The notes below the pieces were generated by a model, which was given only the letters and a program-made list of their open reading frames with translations, had not been told where the DNA came from and searched no databases. The position numbers were made by a program, and so were the translations under genes. This document shows, piece after piece, positions 52,631-64,000 of a DNA stretch of 64,000 bases. How positions within the stretch are numbered: the first letter of the stretch is position 1; the number at the start of each line of letters is the position of its first letter. The stretch spans positions 640,001 through 704,000 of the forward strand of contig JBKBWQ010000001.1 in NCBI GenBank assembly GCA_046314355.1. Direction: 5' to 3'. Origin of the DNA: Candidatus Altimarinota bacterium. GTDB lineage: Bacteria; Patescibacteriota; Gracilibacteria; 1-14-2-50-48-13.

Positions 52631-52714
52631 GAGTACTTAGTAGTGAGTACTTTGTAATTAGTACGCCCTTTTTATAATGAGCCACTAATTACTAACTACA
52701 AACTACTATCACTC
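52631..52714. repeat. Inverted heptamer repeats between the two tRNAs
   Basis: GAGTACT TAGTAGT GAGTACT TTGTAAT TAGT ... ACTAATT ACTAACT ACAAACT ACTATCACTC. Confidence 0.55.
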
Positions 52715-54425
52715 ACGCGAAGCGTATATGCACTCGTAGCTCAGCTGGATAGAGCGTTGGTTTGCGGAACCAAAGGTCGTAGGTTCGAACCCTGTCGAGT
52801 GCACCATATAGAAATTTTAAGGTACTCAACATAGTGTTAAGCTTGTTTGATGCAGGCTTTTTTGGTTCGACCACGCTAATACTCTTCTCTCCTTTAGGTT
52901 TGGCGAACCGAAACAGGATCTTTATTTTTAATTTTCCTTCTTCACTGTAGTAAGCCTCTATTCGTTCAACAAGGACAGAAATAATTGTACGTCTTTGCTC
53001 AAAGCTTAGATCATCTACTTTATCCTTAAAGTATAGAGCAAAGCCTTCAATCGCTTTGAAGGTCATTTCATGGTTAATGAGTCGCTCAAGTTCATCTAAT
53101 AGGGCTTGTTCACTTTTCATACAATCATTAATTGTTTTCTGATACTCAGCTTGCTTTCTATCCCTAAATTCTTCAGAAATACTTCCCTTATAGTAATCTT
53201 CCATAAGCCTCTCAAAAGATTTTTCAGCAATCTCCTTTTGTCTGACAACGTTCTCTATTTCACGCTGTTTACCTCGAACGTGGACTTTGGTGACAATTTG
53301 TTTTTTATAAATCGCAAAAAACTTTTTAGGGTTATTTATAGCCATCAGTACATGGTTCCACACAAAATTATCAATTACCTCTCCTGGTATCTCTAAATTG
53401 CTATACCTTAAACCATCCTCACGAATAAAAGCCTTATGACGATACGAATGCCCTCCTTTGGGTCTCATATATCCAATAAATTTCCTCTTTGATATTGGAT
53501 TATATATTTTTCTTGAAAGTAGGTACTCACGTTGTCCTCCTCCTTTATTACCACTAGTTTCTGTAATCTCATGAATAATCTCCTTAGCTTGGTCAAAAAC
53601 TACCTTCGTAATGATCTGTGGTGCCTTCTCTCTTACAACTCCATGATCCTTGAATGTGATCTCTCTATACCCCAAATAAATGCTATTTTTTAATATATCT
53701 TTAATAGATGTATCATACCATTGGGTATCCTTCACCTTAGAGCCTCGTTGATTAGACTTAGGGACATGTAGCTTATTCATTTCTATAGCAATTTCACCGT
53801 AGTTCTTGCGTTCAAGTATAAACCAAAAAAAGATCTGCTTTACCCATTTAGCTTCTTCAGGGATTACTTCAAGCTGTGAGCCTTTCTTATCTATATTTTT
53901 CACTTTTTTGTACCCATATGGTACAGCTGAACCCGTATAGTTACCAAGCCGAGCAGAGGCAATCTTCCCTTCCATCGTGCGAGTTTTTATTGTTTCTCTT
54001 TCAAACTCAGCCAAAGCACCAAAGATCTGGAATGTAAGCTTACCAATAGGACCAGTAAAATCTACATTCTCTTTGAGAGAATAGAAACTTACTCCATACT
54101 TCTGCATCTCTTCAAAAGCAAACAATAGATGTGAAAGATTACGGGACAAGCGGTCAATCTTCCATACAGCAACTAGGTCCACTTCTTTACGCTTCACACA
54201 CTCCATTAGTTCCTTGAATTTTGGACGGTTTAAATCTGCACCACTTAGCCCCTCATCAATAAATTCCCATTTCTTCTCATGGACCCAGTTATGTAATTTA
54301 CTGCGGTATTTTACTAGCTCATTTAGTCCATCAAGTTGCATAGCTAAGCCAAAGCCTTCTACTTGCTCTTCCGTAGAAACTCGGAGGTAAAAAGCTACTC
54401 GTACAGGTTTTTTGTCTTCTTCCAT
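52713..54425 (-). CDS. Large serine recombinase/integrase; ORF extends antisense through tRNA-Arg(GCG)
   Basis: YLRVSTEEQ, DEGLSGA, KIDRLSR, AEFERETI, VPYGY, coiled coil, RRTIISVLVERI. Confidence 0.92.
   Translation of the reverse strand: MEEDKKPVRVAFYLRVSTEEQVEGFGLAMQLDGLNELVKYRSKLHNWVHEKKWEFIDEGLSGADLNRPKFKELMECVKRKEVDLVAVWKIDRLSRNLSHLLFAFEEMQKYGVSFYSLKENVDFTGPIGKLTFQIFGALAEFERETIKTRTMEGKIASARLGNYTGSAVPYGYKKVKNIDKKGSQLEVIPEEAKWVKQIFFWFILERKNYGEIAIEMNKLHVPKSNQRGSKVKDTQWYDTSIKDILKNSIYLGYREITFKDHGVVREKAPQIITKVVFDQAKEIIHEITETSGNKGGGQREYLLSRKIYNPISKRKFIGYMRPKGGHSYRHKAFIREDGLRYSNLEIPGEVIDNFVWNHVLMAINNPKKFFAIYKKQIVTKVHVRGKQREIENVVRQKEIAEKSFERLMEDYYKGSISEEFRDRKQAEYQKTINDCMKSEQALLDELERLINHEMTFKAIEGFALYFKDKVDDLSFEQRRTIISVLVERIEAYYSEEGKLKIKILFRFAKPKGEKSISVVEPKKPASNKLNTMLSTLKFLYGALDRVRTYDLWFRKPTLYPAELRVHIRFA
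52730..52806 (+). tRNA. tRNA-Arg(GCG)
   Basis: GCACTCG/CGAGTGC acceptor; loop TTGCGGA; encoded CCA. Confidence 0.95.
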
Positions 54426-54452
54426 GCAGTAAAAAAAAAGAATGATACAGGT

Positions 54453-54481
54453 ATTGTATACATCTTTTTTCTTCCTCTCAA
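54453..54481 (-). promoter_or_regulatory. Sigma70-like promoter of the recombinase overlapped by an inverted repeat
   Basis: TTGAGA-17-TACAAT on the minus strand; AAAAGAATGATACA / TGTATACATCTTTT arms span the -10. Confidence 0.5.
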
Positions 54482-54504
54482 CGTTTCTCTTTAATCTTTC
54501 ATAC

Positions 54505-54705
54505 TTAACCTTGTGGAGCTCTTGTATCTTTTAAGATTACACGCAGTATAAATTCATCATCTTCTTCTCTCTTATCTTCAGGAATTTCATCATCAAAAAC
54601 AGCCTCTATTTCAATTATATGGGTCCTTCTCCCCATTGGAGGTATTACTAGAATAGAAGGATTATCCTGCTTATTCTGCGCTGTTTTAAGAGGTTTTTTC
54701 TTCAC
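54505..54705 (-). CDS. Small hypothetical protein upstream of the recombinase
   Basis: 66-aa ORF, co-oriented; basic N-terminus, acidic C-terminus. Confidence 0.45.
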   Translation of the reverse strand: MKKKPLKTAQNKQDNPSILVIPPMGRRTHIIEIEAVFDDEIPEDKREEDDEFILRVILKDTRAPQG

Positions 54706-54785
54706 AAAAAATCAAGATAGGATTTGTTGTAGTGATCCTACTGATTTAAATTATGACCTCGTGACATCAGAAACCAGAAGTAATG

Positions 54786-55496
54786 TCACAACCAACCAAT
54801 CCTTTGTTTTATCTCTTCTAATTTTCTATGAGAGATCTGACGTACATTTGCCGCCCTACGAGTGTCTGTTTGTTCATCCCCTTCAGGATAAACTTCTGCA
54901 ACAATATCCTTCGATGAATACTTATATTCTTCATCAAATGTTTTCACTTTCTTCCCTCTTTGCTGAGATTTTTCTAATATCATCTTATCTCTATTAGCAT
55001 TCTTTTTTGGTCTATGTACTATAGCTTTATTAGGCTCTGAGAAATTTCTAATAATCTCCATGAGTTCATTAGAAACTAACAATTCTTTCTGAGACGGTTT
55101 ACGGTATGTAGCAATTGAAAGTGTACTCGGTTGATTATTCTCATAATGACGAACAACCTCGGCATTAGCTACTGGAGCCGTAATTTCATTAAAAATCACA
55201 TAAGTTTCTATAGCTCTTCTGTAGCGCTTATCCACTTTAAGCTCATGACACCTTTGATGTAGTTTATTGATGTCTTCGCACCAATCTTCAATCTTCTCAT
55301 CTAAGTTTATATACCATTCAGTTTTTTGCTCACCACCTTTTACAGTGAAAGGAAAACCTTCTAAAGGTATATTATAGCATTTACGAAGCTCTGTGACATT
55401 TTCTTTAAATGCTGGAATCTGAACAAGCAATTCCATTAGGTTGAGATTTGCTTGGTAAACATTCTTATCAAAGTCTTCATTCTCAATCTGTTTCAT
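54786..55496 (-). CDS. Hypothetical protein, possibly DNA-binding
   Basis: Overlaps the OLD gene end by 14 nt; basic, HTH-like C-terminus (YSSKDIVAEVY...ANVRQISHR). Confidence 0.65.
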   Translation of the reverse strand: MKQIENEDFDKNVYQANLNLMELLVQIPAFKENVTELRKCYNIPLEGFPFTVKGGEQKTEWYINLDEKIEDWCEDINKLHQRCHELKVDKRYRRAIETYVIFNEITAPVANAEVVRHYENNQPSTLSIATYRKPSQKELLVSNELMEIIRNFSEPNKAIVHRPKKNANRDKMILEKSQQRGKKVKTFDEEYKYSSKDIVAEVYPEGDEQTDTRRAANVRQISHRKLEEIKQRIGWL

Positions 55497-57489
55497 GACT
55501 TCTAGTTAGATCTTGAATATCATTCCAATGGACAATTTGCATGTGCAATTTTTCAATCATGGAAATTAAGACTTGGTTATCTTTGAGGTCTTGTATAACC
55601 ATGTTTTTGGTAACTTTTAATGCAAACCTTTTCTTGGCCTTAGTATAACGATCTTGATATTTTTCATCTAGAGATTTCTCAAATGGTTGACCTCTTTTAT
55701 TCATTTCATAGGTATCAGGTACAATGTCATCTTTATATGCCCTGACCAAGCAATCTCTAGTTAAGTAATTCTCTATTTCAGTTCCATCTGTTATCCATCC
55801 AAATCCATGTCCCTTATTAGCTTCTGCCTCAATCTTAATTTTAGTTGACCACATATTATCTGTTTCACTATCTCTATCCATCAATACAACCGCATTTCTA
55901 TTTATATGTAACATACTTATAAAGTCTTGATTAGCTTCTTCTACTTCGTCTATCCAATCTTGATCCAAATCAAAATTTGAAAGTACTTTTCCACCGTAAA
56001 ATAGTATTGAAAAATCTCTACCCTCAACAACTTTTGTAATATTTTCATTTAATGCTTGAAAAAGGTTTAGCCACTTTAGAAGATATATTCTATCTGAAGG
56101 ACCTTCCACCCATATAATTCCATTTGACTGCAATAGATCAGAAGCAAATATACCCAGCTCCCTACAAAGGTCTGACATAGAATTACAGTCTCCATTATCA
56201 TTAAAAATATTTTCTACTCTGCTGAATGTTTCCTTTGCATCCATCGAAACCTTTATAATTTTCGTTGAAGTTCTTATTTTCAGTAATGGATCAATAAACG
56301 TATTTGAGTGAGTCGTAATGAAAAATTGGTATCCATACTTTTTACTTTGATCCATTAAAAACCTTATGAATGCTCTTTGTAGCTTTGGATGGAAGTGTGA
56401 TTCAGGTTCTTCAATTAAAATTAATGAATTCTCTGTCGATAGAATAATCTCGAGAGACATATAAATTAATTGTTCAAGACCAGCTCCAAGTTGCGAAAGC
56501 GGAAGTATCTTATCATCAAGACTTAGCTCAATAGCATACTGTGTACTCTCATTTATATCTGGAAATATGAGCTCTAGCCTATCTATTTGATTTTCAGGTA
56601 TGGAAGGAAAAAGTAGTTCTCTAAGCATTTGCTTAACTTGTAGGAATTTCTTTCGTTCGGCGATTCTACCGTCTCTAAGATTCATTAATCTCTGGACAAT
56701 TCTACCTTCTAAATCATCTTTTAATTCATTATGTCTCTTCTCAAATAAAAGAGGATATATTCCTCTTAATGGTTGAATGGTTGTCAAACGATTACTAGAG
56801 ATGCTACGCAAGACCCTTTTCAACACTATGCCTACATCACCAAACATAGACCTCGCCTTAACAGCTATACCTTCAGGTACGTGGCGACTAACAGGATCCA
56901 TTGCACTAATAATTCCTCTCGATTCATGTACGCTAATTACCAAATTTTCTTCTATATCAAACAACGTATACTCTCTACCATTCTCAGAATCAGGGATAGA
57001 TAATCCAATAAGTTCTGCCTGCAATTCCATTTGATGAATTTCCTTTATCTTAAATTTAAATTTTAAAGATTTTTCTTCTCTTTCTGATTCTTCCCATAAT
57101 GTGGGTATAATTTTTATTTGACGTTGCCCTGCATTAAAAAATGGTAGAATAGTTTTTATTTCATCAGCTTCTTCTTTTGTAAAAACCAAAGCAAAAGAAA
57201 TATATAATTCTTTTGGAATTTTCTGCATATAAAAAAGATCCTCAATTTTTCTTATAAAACTAAGCTTAGTCTTAATATCATCAATACCTATTACATGAGT
57301 AAAGTGTTCCCTATTATTCCATTCAGCAGAAAACAAGATATAATGAATGAATAGTAACGATTTTAAAACATTAGATTTACCTTCATTGTTTGGTCCTATA
57401 ATCAAATTATATTTATCAAAAGTGACATCTAAAGGGTGTTCTTCTGAAAAACTAAGCATATTACTAATATGTAGACTTTGTATTTTCAT
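55483..57489 (-). CDS. OLD-family ABC ATPase-TOPRIM nuclease
   Basis: IGPNNEGKSN, LGAGLEQ, LIEEPESHFHP, ITTHS; TOPRIM VEGPSD and DRD, EIENY. Confidence 0.88.
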   Translation of the reverse strand: MKIQSLHISNMLSFSEEHPLDVTFDKYNLIIGPNNEGKSNVLKSLLFIHYILFSAEWNNREHFTHVIGIDDIKTKLSFIRKIEDLFYMQKIPKELYISFALVFTKEEADEIKTILPFFNAGQRQIKIIPTLWEESEREEKSLKFKFKIKEIHQMELQAELIGLSIPDSENGREYTLFDIEENLVISVHESRGIISAMDPVSRHVPEGIAVKARSMFGDVGIVLKRVLRSISSNRLTTIQPLRGIYPLLFEKRHNELKDDLEGRIVQRLMNLRDGRIAERKKFLQVKQMLRELLFPSIPENQIDRLELIFPDINESTQYAIELSLDDKILPLSQLGAGLEQLIYMSLEIILSTENSLILIEEPESHFHPKLQRAFIRFLMDQSKKYGYQFFITTHSNTFIDPLLKIRTSTKIIKVSMDAKETFSRVENIFNDNGDCNSMSDLCRELGIFASDLLQSNGIIWVEGPSDRIYLLKWLNLFQALNENITKVVEGRDFSILFYGGKVLSNFDLDQDWIDEVEEANQDFISMLHINRNAVVLMDRDSETDNMWSTKIKIEAEANKGHGFGWITDGTEIENYLTRDCLVRAYKDDIVPDTYEMNKRGQPFEKSLDEKYQDRYTKAKKRFALKVTKNMVIQDLKDNQVLISMIEKLHMQIVHWNDIQDLTRSHETD

Positions 57490-57545
57490 GAATTATCTGT
57501 AGTTAATTTAAGAATACTATAAGCCATACTAGTGAAAATAAGGCT

Positions 57546-57577
57546 AAAAAAAAGACCTTGTTAGAACAAGGTCTTTT
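57546..57577 (-). terminator. Terminator after the SLH-DUF4352 gene
   Basis: AAAAGACCTTGTT-ag-AACAAGGTCTTTT. Confidence 0.8.
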
Positions 57578-57582
57578 AGACT

Positions 57583-58305
57583 TTATAAATTCACATAAAA
57601 CTGTCCAAGCTTCCCATAGTCTATTTCATACTTCAGATCTTTCAATGTCGCATCTATAGGAACCTCAAAAGCAACATATCCACGTGTCTCTCTTGTATTC
57701 TCAAGCTCTCCACTGCTTAGAAGAGGAGTTTTGTCTGTCACTGCCATCTGGTATGCGTAACTATCCTTGTCATAAAGGGTAAAGTTATAAGCATTATAGG
57801 AAATTGTTTTTCCACTATTATTACTGATCCGAACATCTGCAATAACATACTTCTTTCCTGCATCTGCTTTAAACAAAGATGATGAATAATCTGCCACACT
57901 ACTTACTGTAAGAGTGACGCCATTTAAAGTACCCGCAGAGTTGAGGCTGATTGTTTTAGATGTCTCAGTCGTATTTACATTTGTGTTTCCGTTAGAGGTA
58001 GTCGTAGTAGGATTTTTTAACATCGTATCTATCTGTGCCTTCGTATAGTAGTTTTTTGCTACGTACGCATTGTATCTATTCCACATTGCAGAAAGCTCCG
58101 CACGGTTTACGTTGTTTCCTGGTTTGAAGGTCCCATCGGGATTACCTCGTATAACGTCCCAATCTACCATTTTCTGGACATCGTTATAGAACCAGTCACT
58201 TGGACTGACATCGCTAAAACTCATTTGAGCTGCGAACGTTGCACCCACTCCGAAGAGAGAACCAACGAGAAATATTGCTGTGCCTACTGCCATTGTTTTT
58301 TTCAT
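57583..58305 (-). CDS. Secreted SLH + DUF4352-like protein (start MKKTM at 58305)
   Basis: Signal peptide; SLH FSDV..DWFY..GNPDGTFKP..VNRAE; V.ISNNS...F.LYD..GEL..TRGYVAFEVP. Confidence 0.8.
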   Translation of the reverse strand: MKKTMAVGTAIFLVGSLFGVGATFAAQMSFSDVSPSDWFYNDVQKMVDWDVIRGNPDGTFKPGNNVNRAELSAMWNRYNAYVAKNYYTKAQIDTMLKNPTTTTSNGNTNVNTTETSKTISLNSAGTLNGVTLTVSSVADYSSSLFKADAGKKYVIADVRISNNSGKTISYNAYNFTLYDKDSYAYQMAVTDKTPLLSSGELENTRETRGYVAFEVPIDATLKDLKYEIDYGKLGQFYVNL

Positions 58306-58330
58306 AGTTTTTGAAAAAAAGGGATAAAAA

Positions 58331-58463
58331 CAAAAAGGACGTACATGGCTGATCCAATACGCTTGCCCATAAGGTAGCCTTACTGGCATGTACGCCCACC
58401 TCTGGCAGTAAAGCCTTAGGAAAGAACGTTCCTTATGGAATTGGTAAACTATATTGGATCAGC
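58331..58463 (-). ncRNA. Candidate structured 5' leader RNA (multi-stem with pseudoknot or terminator switch)
   Basis: Four complementary helix pairs seen directly; predicted start point coincides with the first paired base. Confidence 0.6.
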
Positions 58464-58469
58464 ACGAAG

Positions 58470-58497
58470 ATAGTAGCAGAAACAGAATCTTTTGCAA
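58470..58497 (-). promoter_or_regulatory. Promoter for the leader RNA and SLH gene
   Basis: TTGCAA-16-TACTAT with extended TG. Confidence 0.55.
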
Positions 58498-58502
58498 TTA
58501 TA

Positions 58503-58552
58503 GTTTTCAACGTTGGAAACCCTCATTTCAGGGAGTTTCCAACGTTGAAAAC
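58503..58552. repeat. Perfect 18-bp inverted repeat with self-palindromic arms
   Basis: GTTTTCAACGTTGGAAAC (58503-58520) / GTTTCCAACGTTGAAAAC (58535-58552). Confidence 0.85.
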
Positions 58553-59025
58553 CCCTAAGTATTTTAGAAAATACAGACCTAAAATTGACATATTTGTAAA
58601 TTAACAGCTAATCTCACCAAAGTACTGATTTAGCTCAAGCAAATCCAACCACAGATGCTAAATTATTACACATTTACAATACATGTATTTTATTTTTTTA
58701 TTCTATCTATCATTTGCGGTATGTCTGCTTAAAAAAGAGATATTTATATTTCATAGCATAAACATATCTTCTCTTTTGTGAGAGCTAACTTTACCTATTT
58801 TTACATTCATATTTATAAATAAGAATAACCTTTATCTTTAAGTAAATCCAACCAAGTATTTATACTTTACAGTATACTTTTTCTCCTTTCTTATTACAAT
58901 TTCTATATAAATCCCATTTTAGAGATAATCTCAATTATAAAAAAGCTTTAGAAACTGTATTATTTTGACTTATTCATGACCTGAATCTTATAAAATAGCT
59001 TAAATCTCTACCACCTCACTTATAA

Positions 59026-60534
59026 ATGCCAAATACACCTAAAACACGAATTAATATATATTTCTCTGACTTTTTTAATATTGCTCCTAAAGTTATAGAG
59101 GACTTTGGAGCATTAAATATTTCGTTAGTCTCAGATTTACCTTTATTTATAGACCCCTTTCTTCTCTTCCACAGTACAAAAGAACCCTATAAAGAAATTC
59201 ATATTCAAATAATAAAGTATCTACATTTCTTACGAAAGACATCTACATCCGTTAGTATTGGAGACAAAGGAAGATTAAAAACTTTGTATAGTTTTTCAGA
59301 AGTAAAACAAACTTGGTTAGGATTTACCGAAAACAGCAATAAGGGTAAAGGTCTAGGACCAATCTTTGCATCCAAGTTAGACAATAATTTACGCAAAATT
59401 TTTAAACAGTTTGGGGAAGAAGAAGTAACTCAATCAAGTCATCTAGAAAAACTTTGCTTATTAGAGAAAGGTGTTGGAGCAGATTCAATAAGTGATTATA
59501 CGACAAATCTAATATGGGGCTTTCTTGCTGAATATACAGAAGAGTTTGCAAAAGCACATTTATCCGCTGCACAATGTAAATTAGTCACTATCCCAAGAGC
59601 TTTCTTTAATGAAGAAACTGAAATGTGGGTATCAAAGAACTACACATTGCCATATATAAATGGTGATTACGTCCTTTTGACTCCTATAGACATAGTAGCC
59701 AGAGAAAAAAATTGGATAAATAGAGACGATCTTATTAAAGATTTTGAAGCTATTCCTGAAATAATTACTAATGAAGAACTCAGATCTGGTATTAGTAATT
59801 ATTTTTGTAAAAAACTAGCAGAAAAGTCACCTAACTCTTCGCCTACGGCTGAAGATAAAGTATATGCTATTAACAGCACCTTCCATCAATTTCCAGAATT
59901 GATCGATTACTATATTCTCTTAAAAGAAATAACTGGCGACAAAGCTAGTAAGATTAATAAGGAGGAAATAAGCCATATGAGAGAAGCTGTTATTAAAAGA
60001 GCCAATGCATTAGTAGATCTTCTAAGCCATTGTACTAAATTCTATGACATAGAGGGAAATACGTATGAAGAGGCATTAAAACGTATCCAGTATTTAAAAC
60101 ATGTAATAGAGGATGAGGATGGCTATAGAATTTTTCATCAAAATGGCACTGTAAAGAAACGAGAATCTGATATTCATGCACTTTTCAAACTAACTTGGTG
60201 TGGAACTAAGTATGATGTAAATTCTGAGGTAAATAATGGACGTGGTCCTGTAGATTTTAAAGTCTCATTAGGAAGTACTGATAAGACTCTTGTAGAATTT
60301 AAGTTAGCTTCTAACCCTCAGCTAGAAAGGAATTTACGCAATCAGGTAGAAATATATAAAAAGGCTAATAAGACCAAAAAAGCCTTAAAAGTAATATTAT
60401 ACTTCACGAAAGGAGAGTTAATCAAAGTAGAAGGCATCTTAAAAAAATTAGGTAGAGAAAATGATCCAACCATTATACTTATTGATGCACGTAATGATAA
60501 TAAGCCTTCTGCTTCAAAAGCAACCACACATTAA
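59026..60534 (+). CDS. Putative PD-(D/E)XK nuclease-domain protein
   Basis: C-terminal EVNNGRGPVDF...LVEFKLAS; N-terminal DLPLFIDPFLL. Confidence 0.65.
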   Translation: MPNTPKTRINIYFSDFFNIAPKVIEDFGALNISLVSDLPLFIDPFLLFHSTKEPYKEIHIQIIKYLHFLRKTSTSVSIGDKGRLKTLYSFSEVKQTWLGFTENSNKGKGLGPIFASKLDNNLRKIFKQFGEEEVTQSSHLEKLCLLEKGVGADSISDYTTNLIWGFLAEYTEEFAKAHLSAAQCKLVTIPRAFFNEETEMWVSKNYTLPYINGDYVLLTPIDIVAREKNWINRDDLIKDFEAIPEIITNEELRSGISNYFCKKLAEKSPNSSPTAEDKVYAINSTFHQFPELIDYYILLKEITGDKASKINKEEISHMREAVIKRANALVDLLSHCTKFYDIEGNTYEEALKRIQYLKHVIEDEDGYRIFHQNGTVKKRESDIHALFKLTWCGTKYDVNSEVNNGRGPVDFKVSLGSTDKTLVEFKLASNPQLERNLRNQVEIYKKANKTKKALKVILYFTKGELIKVEGILKKLGRENDPTIILIDARNDNKPSASKATTH

Positions 60535-62518: not shown

Positions 62519-64000
62519 ATGTTTTATACAAAAACAAAAAAGGTATCAACGCTGTTCCTGCTCTCTGCATTTATCTTTGGATTCATACTCAATTCAGAAT
62601 TAGTCTTTGCAGCCAATGTAGCGCCCGTTGCATCCGATGTTTCTATTACTGGCGGCACCAATGTCGGCGACCTTCTTACAGGTAACTACACTTTTAGTGA
62701 TGCTGATAACGATTGGACTGCACTAGGCGGTGCGGGAAATGCATATAATGGTGAAACATGGAGACCAAAAATGAAGGTTGACCAATCAGGAAACGTATAT
62801 TTTGCATTCGGTTCAGATATACCTAATGGTAATAAAGGTACAGTGACAAAATACGATCCTAATACACAAAGCTGGTCATTTGTAGGTACGCCGTATTTCA
62901 CACCTGGAGCTGCTCGTGATGTAGGGCTAGATATTGATTCAAATGGCACTCCTTATTTTGCATTTCAAGATGAAGCAAATTTTTATAGACCCTCAGTGAT
63001 GAAATTTAATGGTACGTCATGGGTATACGTAGGATTACCTGAAGTCTCTAATGTGCCTATAAATAGCCAGTTAAATCTTGTTTTGGATAGTAATGACTTA
63101 CCATATATCTCGTATGTAAATGATACTAATTTTAAACTTAAAGTATTGAGATTCAATGGCACCTCTTGGGTTGATGTTGGTCCTGCTGGTGAACCATCCA
63201 CTGATGCTGCCCGTGGTGGATCTCTTGCTCTTGATGGAAATAATGTACCTTATATTACTTACGCAATCGCGCCCTCTGCTGCGAATGGATATAATTATGG
63301 TAAAGTAATAGTAAAGAAGTTTAATGGTACCTCATGGATTGATGTTGGTCCTGCTGGTGGTGTTAGTGAAGAAACAGCAACTGATGTCACTATGGCTATT
63401 GACTCTAATAACGTACCTTATTTTGTTTATTCCAATACTACTGGAGGTAATAAGGCACTGAAATTCAATGGCAGCGTTTGGGAATATATTGGTTCAAATA
63501 GCGGTTCAGTCACACCAGTATTTGGAGCTAGTAGTCCATATCTAGCCCTCGATGATAATGATGTCCCATACGTAGCTCTTGAGGTTGTTGACTTTAATGA
63601 TGGAACCTACTCTAATTCAGTAAGAAAATTTAATGGTACTTCTTGGGAAACTGTAGGCAGCGATAGTTTTACCCCTGCCCGCGGATATATCCCGGTATTG
63701 GACTTTGATGCAGACCAAAATGTCTATATAGGATTTGAAGACTTTTATTTTTCAGATCCAGATAATGATGTTGTATCTTATGGTACCGTAACGAAATATG
63801 CTATAGTAGATGAGGAAGGAGCATCTACCTATCGATGGCTAAGAGATGGTACTCCTATATCTGGAGCGACCGCTTCGACATACACTATTGTTACTGCCGA
63901 CCGAGGTACCACACTTACCTTTGAGGTCACTCCAGTAGCTGCTACAGGCACTTCTCCAGGTACCGCTGCAACGAGTCCAGCGTACTTCATCCCCGATGAA
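62519..64000 (+). CDS. Secreted Ig-like + beta-propeller surface protein (3'-truncated, absent from ORF track)
   Basis: MFYTKTKKVSTLFLL..VFA signal; APVASDVSITG; repeated KFNGTSW..VG blades; frame open to the window end. Confidence 0.85.
   Translation, partial: MFYTKTKKVSTLFLLSAFIFGFILNSELVFAANVAPVASDVSITGGTNVGDLLTGNYTFSDADNDWTALGGAGNAYNGETWRPKMKVDQSGNVYFAFGSDIPNGNKGTVTKYDPNTQSWSFVGTPYFTPGAARDVGLDIDSNGTPYFAFQDEANFYRPSVMKFNGTSWVYVGLPEVSNVPINSQLNLVLDSNDLPYISYVNDTNFKLKVLRFNGTSWVDVGPAGEPSTDAARGGSLALDGNNVPYITYAIAPSAANGYNYGKVIVKKFNGTSWIDVGPAGGVSEETATDVTMAIDSNNVPYFVYSNTTGGNKALKFNGSVWEYIGSNSGSVTPVFGASSPYLALDDNDVPYVALEVVDFNDGTYSNSVRKFNGTSWETVGSDSFTPARGYIPVLDFDADQNVYIGFEDFYFSDPDNDVVSYGTVTKYAIVDEEGASTYRWLRDGTPISGATASTYTIVTADRGTTLTFEVTPVAATGTSPGTAATSPAYFIPDE

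Follow-up and report, generated by a model that had tools for sequence, protein, structure and literature searches.

The window analysed here, a stretch of 64,000 nucleotides with a GC content of 37.8%, corresponds to positions 640001-704000 of contig C1 in a genome of 1.69 Mb assembled in 28 contigs. Its minus strand carries a structured leader composed of promoter-like hexamers, three nested helices (P1, P2 and P3), a long-range helix (T) and a U run, and the ATG of a gene encoding SLH and DUF4352 domains lies at 58305, 20 nt downstream of that U run. The parts of the leader and the genes behind it are as follows.

58492..58497, minus strand: -35-like hexamer TTGCAA (TTGCGA in the same place in the second copy of the genome)
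58470..58475, minus strand: -10-like hexamer TACTAT, 16 nt past the -35 hexamer and 6 nt before G58463
58452..58463, minus strand: P1 5' strand GCUGAUCCAAUA; its first base is the putative transcription start; 12 pairs, 11 changed on both sides
58439..58451, minus strand: J1/2 UAGUUUACCAAUU, 5' side of the internal loop, A/U-rich and variable among 47 family sequences
58431..58438, minus strand: P2 5' strand CCAUAAGG; 8 pairs, 8 changed on both sides
58416..58430, minus strand: bulge AACGUUCUUUCCUAA (15 nt), in which ACGUUC (58429-58424) mimics the T 3' strand and is the candidate antiterminator strand
58406..58415, minus strand: P3 5' strand GGCUUUACUG; changes on both sides at 9 of 10 pairs (35-sequence set) and 9 of 9 (metagenome set)
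58398..58405, minus strand: L1 CCAGAGGU, 5' part of the P3 apical loop; CCA/UGG able to form a small local hairpin, P4
58387..58397, minus strand: T 5' strand GGGCGUACAUG, within the P3 loop; 11 pairs with 58347-58337
58376..58385, minus strand: P3 3' strand CAGUAAGGCU, pairing with GGCUUUACUG; 10 pairs, two of them G-U
58367..58374, minus strand: P2 3' strand CCUUAUGG, pairing with CCAUAAGG
58360..58366, minus strand: J2/1 GCAAGCG; family pattern G-N-A-A-S-U/C-G
58348..58359, minus strand: P1 3' strand UAUUGGAUCAGC, pairing with GCUGAUCCAAUA
58337..58347, minus strand: T 3' strand CAUGUACGUCC, with no spacer between it and P1
58326..58336, minus strand: U run UUUUUGUUUUU, the putative termination point
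57583..58305, minus strand: SLH and DUF4352 gene, secreted product, putatively controlled by the leader (Pfam SLH 3.4e-12, DUF4352 1.2e-18)
52713..57489, minus strand: co-directional gene row of the island behind the SLH-DUF4352 gene
55483-57489, minus strand: GajA/AriA/Old-like ATPase (PADLOC)
54786-55496, minus strand: 236-aa ORF, no family
52713-54425, minus strand: large serine recombinase, its 3' end overlapping tRNA-Arg 52730-52806

The four helices lie where the first-pass annotation had placed them on the minus strand: an outer stem of GCTGATCCAATA (58463-58452) with TATTGGATCAGC (58359-58348), an inner helix of CCATAAGG (58438-58431) with CCTTATGG (58374-58367), a third helix of GGCTTTACTG (58415-58406) with CAGTAAGGCT (58385-58376), which comprises 10 pairs including two G-U, and a loop-to-tail pairing of GGGCGTACATG (58397-58387) with CATGTACGTCC (58347-58337), followed by TTTTTGTTTTT at 58336-58326. 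The 151-nt stretch has a minimum free energy of -49.4 kcal/mol versus -34.8 ± 3.6 in 200 shuffles (z -4.0), none of which was as low. All four helices covary in homologs. The third is missing from the nested minimum-energy structure, in which ACGUUC (58429-58424) pairs with GGGCGU (58397-58392) and P3 is replaced by two small hairpins, an alternative not noted in the first-pass annotation. For the window copy, the nested minimum with this bulge-to-GGGCGU pairing is -48.4, as against -42.5 with P1-P3 enforced; the T duplex (-16.6) is to be added to the latter less a pseudoknot cost, and the bulge-paired state and the state with P1-P3 and T are thus predicted to be nearly equal in energy. T may form in place of P1-P3 or alongside them, in which case the 5' end would be the meeting point of a four-helix ring.

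A second copy of the leader was found by BLAST in the same genome at C1:397562-397700 (79% identity over 153 nt), and BLAST searches of 40 relatives gave chance matches only. The genes flanking the two copies are unrelated, and what the loci have in common are the promoter-like hexamers, the RNA and the U run. Between the copies, compensatory changes occur in P1 (C-G to U-A and U-A to C-G), P2 (A-U to U-G), P3 (C-G to U-A) and T (A-U to G-C). A first covariance model, built from these two copies with P1-P3 only and T left unpaired, recovered the full-length motif from 7 of 150 further genomes sampled within the class; an 8-sequence model matched 34 of 151 sampled genomes of one order (45 matches, up to 4 per genome), and a 35-sequence model 12 of 150 other genomes sampled across the phylum, where all these fractions refer to samples drawn from larger groups, related genomes are not independent and the model E-values are rough. 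Furthermore, at least 80 metagenome loci carry one common variant of helix T as an exact pattern, and 72 of the 80 listed are full-length matches to the model. The family, which belongs to mobile elements with a large serine recombinase, ranges in length from 115 to 170 nt, with 1-4 copies per genome, and the relatives sampled for it have genomes of 0.6-2.0 Mb, a size range suggestive of the candidate phyla radiation.

Pattern searches elsewhere yielded no further members. Ten 17-mer matches in viral contigs all fell within unrelated coding sequence, and neither these nor four gapped-pattern matches in genome contigs of unrelated taxa fitted the covariance model; the gapped pattern had no match in metagenomes, and two T-helix variants had none in viral contigs. 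An Rfam 15 scan of the window reported three tRNAs only and no family over the leader; a permissive scan of 58200-58700 gave chance-level matches (E at least 0.096), none over the leader helices and mostly on the palindrome upstream of it, and Rfam 15 applied to twenty homolog loci again detected tRNAs only. Full-text searches of the literature gave no description of the motif, though supplements of surveys listing many motifs could still contain one, and passages of PMC5737381 and bioRxiv 10.64898/2026.10.21.760802 hold no description of it. We rate the leader as a member of a previously undescribed, widely conserved RNA family of unusual architecture inside a known kind of system.

Covariation supports all four helices, as the first-pass annotation had asked to be checked. 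In the 35-sequence alignment, which was itself fitted to P1-P3 and whose counts there lean to the model, 96.3% of 1301 pair cells are standard pairs versus 67.5 ± 0.8% with the letters of the 3' strands shuffled and 34-47% with the partners slid; 36 of 41 pairs changed on both sides, and the covariation score was 0.671 versus 0.184. Helix T was added to this alignment as a pseudoknot, and its support is independent, since T had been modelled as unpaired: all 11 of its pairs are paired in each counted cell and 8 changed on both sides. The metagenome set, comprising 67 distinct rows among the matches listed, has 93.0% of cells paired versus 64.5% after shuffling, with 28 of 29 pairs changed on both sides, and is no test of T because its rows were chosen by T sequence. 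G-U pairs are frequent (22 of 35 sequences at one T pair, for example), and their conservation fixes the strand that acts as RNA. It should be noted that the inner P1 pairs (CCAA/UUGG) are conserved in sequence as well (C-G in 33 of 34, A-U in 32 of 35), as is J2/1 (G-N-A-A...); judged by this conservation, the two together are a likely contact site. Pairing of J1/2 with the downstream region around the start codon was significant in 1 of 43 cases, and this idea was rejected.

The position of the leader relative to its promoter is also conserved. A TATAAT-like box ends approximately 6 nt before P1 in three groups of loci (the first 8, the 12 from the phylum and those from metagenomes), with TTG-type hexamers approximately 17 nt upstream of the box in homologs. 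P1 opens with G or A in 45 of 47 sequences and in 66 of 67 metagenome rows among the matches listed, and the first pair is G-C or A-U in 33 of 34 (35-sequence set) and 66 of 67 (metagenome rows, among the matches listed). In the window, counting seven positions on from the -10 box leads to G58463, with which the outer stem begins. The spacing from the -10 box and the purine at the first position indicate that the RNA begins at its own first paired base, in agreement with the start predicted in the first-pass annotation. A simple promoter scan did not list the TTGCAA/TACTAT site at 58497-58470, since it requires 9 of 12 matches. The stretch that separates the leader from the divergent gene contains, immediately ahead of the -35 hexamer, a perfect inverted repeat of 20 bp (GTTTTCAACGTTGGAAAC and its complement around a 10-nt loop, 58503-58552). 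This repeat occurs once in the genome and is missing at the second leader copy; it could be an operator or a bidirectional terminator.

With only ATG considered as a start codon in genome and metagenome copies alike, an ORF on the same strand follows each of the 47 genome-derived copies, starting between 5 nt before and 78 nt after the end of the model. In the 35-sequence set the downstream product is a large serine recombinase (Resolvase, Recombinase and Zn_ribbon_recom domains) in 23 sequences, an SLH protein in 5 (three with a staphylococcal-nuclease domain, one with SLH only, and the SLH-DUF4352 protein of the window), a DNA methylase or restriction-type enzyme in 3, a tRNA_anti-like OB-fold protein in 1 and a protein of no family in 3. 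In the phylum set, 9 of 12 downstream genes are recombinases, as judged by N-terminal signature and length without a Pfam scan, and a Pfam scan of the remaining 3 gave no family. Among the metagenome matches listed, 62 of 72 copies have an ATG-initiated ORF of at least 60 aa within 300 nt, 56 of the 62 with a Resolvase domain; of the 10 copies without such an ORF, 8 are cut by the contig end. Further cargo behind leaders includes a Type ISP enzyme and small membrane proteins. The genes in question (integrase, restriction-modification, methylases, secreted nucleases) handle DNA or sit at the cell surface and are all part of one kind of mobile element, a set that fits control by an element factor or a cell-state signal and does not point to a metabolite.

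Two subtypes can be distinguished. Leaders of the recombinase type have a short P2/P3 bulge, whereas those of the cargo type, to which the window leader and the second copy of its genome belong, have a bulge of 12-17 nt with a CGYYCAYC-like sequence. Each of three mapped elements has one recombinase leader and one cargo leader. In two of these, host genes border on the recombinase, behind which come its leader, genes of the tyrosine-recombinase-like and HTH_17 types, small ORFs and a gene of 380 aa, all read in a single direction, with the cargo leader divergent and followed by an N6/N4 methylase and a ResIII helicase; the cargo of the third is a 1122-aa Type ISP enzyme. The two leaders in one element point in opposite ways, each toward its own gene, and this, along with the strand fixed by G-U pairs, argues for a function as RNA rather than as DNA. 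Twelve cargo-type copies were checked, and a Resolvase gene lies within 5 kb on the same contig in 9 of them, on other contigs in 2, and at a distance of 55 kb in 1. The recombinase shares just 22-26% identity with phage serine integrases. In L075 (4091-5338) and L076 (3884-5005), Phage_integrase and HTH_17 genes are located directly upstream of the leader and serine recombinase, so that these elements carry two recombinases of different classes.

In the genome of the window, the second leader copy is divergent from, and adjoins, another large serine recombinase, and a third Resolvase-domain gene (G000:C1:953302-953625) has no leader copy nearby. The tRNA-Arg(gcg) that overlaps the 3' end of the window recombinase is on the other strand, with a second tRNA-Arg 195 nt away. 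An overlap of recombinase 3' end and tRNA is also seen in the metagenome elements L124 (3347-3417) and L143 (3442-3513), and these three overlaps suggest that the elements integrate into tRNA genes with the recombinase reading across the junction. The borders of the island gave nothing clear in the way of direct repeats. The divergent gene at 59026-60534 resembles the candidate defence protein PDC-M36A and, weakly, a PD-(D/E)XK nuclease; on account of this gene and the GajA/AriA/Old-like ATPase, the island has, from its predicted gene content, the look of a defence island carried by a recombinase element. No family was found for the neighbouring ORFs of 236, 273 and 181 aa. Further along the window, diverged tandem units with spacings of 144-309 nt (62993-63657) lie inside ORF 62519-64000 (weak IG_AIR9 match), which probably encodes a repeat-domain surface protein.

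We consider the leader to be rather probably, though by no means certainly, a cis-acting attenuator whose terminator would be the long-range pseudoknot helix, with a competing antiterminator bulge in the subtype found in the window. Transcription would start at G58463, and P1, P2 and P3 would fold as the RNA emerges, so that the apical loop of P3 presents GGGCGUACAUG, the complement of which is made up of the 11 nt directly after P1 and is followed by the U run. Helix T would then be the stem of an intrinsic terminator, with the folded 3' half of the leader as its 39-nt 'loop'. Its 3' half would emerge right after the closure of P1, and once T had formed, the polymerase would stop approximately 25 nt before the ATG of the SLH-DUF4352 gene. 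Alternatively, the copy of the T 3' strand in the bulge (ACGUUC...) may take GGGCGU first, converting P3 into two small hairpins and allowing read-through. Some signal, be it a small molecule, a protein or a physical cue, would shift the balance between the two states. We infer these roles of T, of the bulge and of a signal from the sequence comparisons: the first-pass suggestion of a terminator/antiterminator switch is plausible, a U run lies behind the tail helix and a specific competing strand was identified, while switching itself stays conjectural.

As a terminator, T combines a stable stem with the expected U run. The duplex averages about -20 kcal/mol across the family; in the window its 11 pairs form a GC-rich stem of -16.6 ahead of the U run, and a run of at least 3 U follows T within 8 nt in 105 of 111 unique copies. 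The loop, at 39 nt here and 39-45 nt in the family, is not the short one (about 3-8 nt) of an intrinsic terminator, and a consensus terminator scan of 57400-59200 found none. Canonical hairpin-plus-U sites number 20 in 20 kb of the genome versus 10.4 ± 3.7 in shuffles, and the organism appears to use terminators of this kind. Established work has demonstrated that a strand annealing to the RNA just upstream of the U tract suffices to release the polymerase; it follows that a stem drawing its 5' half from 45 nt upstream is able to terminate. The U run may have another role, since the L1 purines can pair with it in many members, extending T (the extended helix is too long for a closed 20-nt loop), and its conservation could thus serve helix extension and not termination.

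Alternative pairings, as expected of a switch, are present with uneven strength. Cargo-type bulges form 9-11 contiguous pairs with RGRUGGGCG in L028, L038, L043, L045, L051, L057, L058 and L059, and in cargo-type relatives variants of the T 5' strand (GGGCA, GGACG) are matched by changes in the bulge. Among bulges of at least 9 nt, 7 of 20 pair better than 95% of shuffles, with p = 0.15 for each of the two copies in the genome of the window. Most leaders of the recombinase type have no such bulge, and their local hairpin P4, formed by the 5' part of the loop with UGGGCG and often capped by a GNRA-like tetraloop, reaches significance in 10 of 47; the missing bulge and weak P4 leave the switch poorly supported for these leaders. 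In one order, a GGGYR copy further downstream offers the T 3' strand another partner (P5, covarying), significantly so in 14 of 47. Of the 28 long ORFs in the window, 2 have a Shine-Dalgarno-like motif upstream, and one of these 2 is a false start within the leader RNA; such motifs are so nearly absent that sequestration of the ribosome site is not the mechanism. For the same reason GAGGUG in the loop was rejected as a Shine-Dalgarno site, and the GGG after the U run was rejected as a ribosome site at 19-45 nt from the ATG.

Another possible explanation is that the fold is constitutive, burying the 5' triphosphate at the junction of P1 and T and either stabilising the mRNA or acting as a fixed partial terminator that keeps expression low. 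P1 starts at +1 and T stacks straight on it, the recombinase-type leaders have little antiterminator potential, and integrases are usually held at a low level, all of which would suit such a leader. We nonetheless regard it as unlikely: a plain hairpin would suffice for this purpose, yet four helices and several junction nucleotides are conserved, the cargo subtype has a dedicated 9-11-nt mimic of the T 3' strand, and one order has in P5 a covarying helix able to trap that strand.

Somewhat less probable still is an operator for a protein, either the recombinase or another element factor, that would bind the inner P1 pairs and J2/1 to set the fold. The conservation of sequence along with pairing in these parts, and the tie of the family to one kind of mobile element, are what such an operator would predict; the recombinase is the sole candidate protein common to the mapped elements, and the proposal is a variant of the attenuator, with the same mechanism in cis and a protein as the signal, instead of a true alternative.

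The first-pass annotation had left room for a stand-alone RNA of approximately 135 nt, a terminated transcript acting in trans as an antitoxin or a regulator of island genes. Its own promoter, compact fold, terminator-like end and the 1-4 copies per genome would be in keeping with this, but we judge it very improbable: because all 47 genome-derived copies have a gene behind them on the same strand, with no room for a second promoter, the proposed role as leader of the SLH-DUF4352 gene is favoured over a stand-alone one, and the unpaired segments are short, without complementarity to nearby sequence. The suggested link to HEPN or nuclease proteins as an RNA antitoxin found no support, as the conserved partner is a large serine recombinase and no toxin family is conserved nearby. 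Neither type I nor type III antitoxins are resembled by the leader, which overlaps no gene on the opposite strand, is a single unit without tandem repeats and has varying neighbours, mostly recombinases.

Self-cleaving and other catalytic RNAs often occur next to integrase genes, and such an RNA might share the compact pseudoknotted fold, the conserved junction nucleotides and the placement in mobile elements; this reading is highly improbable given that no Rfam 15 ribozyme family matches and that the alternative pairings and U run suit an expression platform better. Least credible of all is that the RNA serves the recombinase as guide or cofactor, in the manner of the IS110 bridge RNA, or that the locus is a DNA site (an att site or single-strand origin): the RNA does lie immediately 5' of a recombinase gene in most members, but it precedes cargo genes as well, the recombinases bring DNA-binding domains of their own (Recombinase and Zn_ribbon_recom), the unpaired segments of 5-6 nt reached p ≤ 0.05 in 1 of 24 tests against the boundaries of three elements, and G-U pairs, promoter spacing and opposite orientations in one element indicate RNA in cis.

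The attenuator that we favour has partial counterparts among described systems. Terminator/antiterminator leaders (riboswitch platforms, T-box, PyrR- and TRAP-type) likewise begin at the transcription start, have a GC-rich helix and U run before the gene and offer a competing strand; here, the 5' half of the terminator is located in the apical loop of a three-helix domain and its 3' half directly after the closing stem, and none of the known family models matches. In H-type pseudoknot riboswitches (preQ1-I, SAM-II, fluoride), gene expression is decided by pairing between a 3' tail and a hairpin loop. The topology of tail and loop is shared, whereas our leader is approximately three times larger, its pseudoknot helix of 11-12 bp itself precedes the U run, and its regulon consists of recombinases and element cargo, not metabolism; it has the covarying structured 5' leader expected of a riboswitch, with few conserved unpaired nucleotides left for a ligand pocket. 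The phage HK022 put RNAs and EAR RNAs, which modify RNA polymerase to ignore downstream terminators, are also folded RNAs at the operon start of mobile elements, near terminators; in contrast to them, the terminator helix of the leader is built from its own loop, and Rfam reveals no similarity. Finally, the IS110/IS621 bridge RNA, as described in portions of bioRxiv 10.64898/2026.10.21.760802, is a structured non-coding RNA 5' of a recombinase gene in a mobile element; the partner here is a large serine recombinase (Resolvase, Recombinase, Zn_ribbon_recom) and not a DEDD enzyme, guide-like loops are not apparent in the three elements compared, and the leader also precedes genes other than recombinases.

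A more far-reaching proposal, which we put forward tentatively and hold to be possible but doubtful, is that the family would represent a new class of sensing RNA, gating the integrase together with defence and surface cargo across a phylum of small genomes by means of a hitherto undescribed expression platform, a pseudoknot-stem intrinsic terminator set over a three-helix domain, with the 5' triphosphate at the junction. If this were true, RNA would read a cellular signal directly, and element mobility and cargo would respond to it.

Many phages and integrative elements have large serine recombinases as their integrases, enzymes that also serve as tools in genome engineering, and to our knowledge the control of their expression is mostly unknown beyond a few model phages. 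In unculturable bacteria, a strongly covarying RNA precedes hundreds of genes for such recombinases, and variants of it precede the restriction-modification genes, DNA methylases and cell-surface nucleases of the same elements. Should the leader be a switch, it would give access to what triggers mobility and the expression of defence genes in these organisms, add a new orphan regulatory RNA for which a ligand or factor can be sought, and allow the idea of termination by a long-range helix to be tested. Should it be a fixed attenuator only, it would still be a new and abundant RNA family worth adding to family databases.
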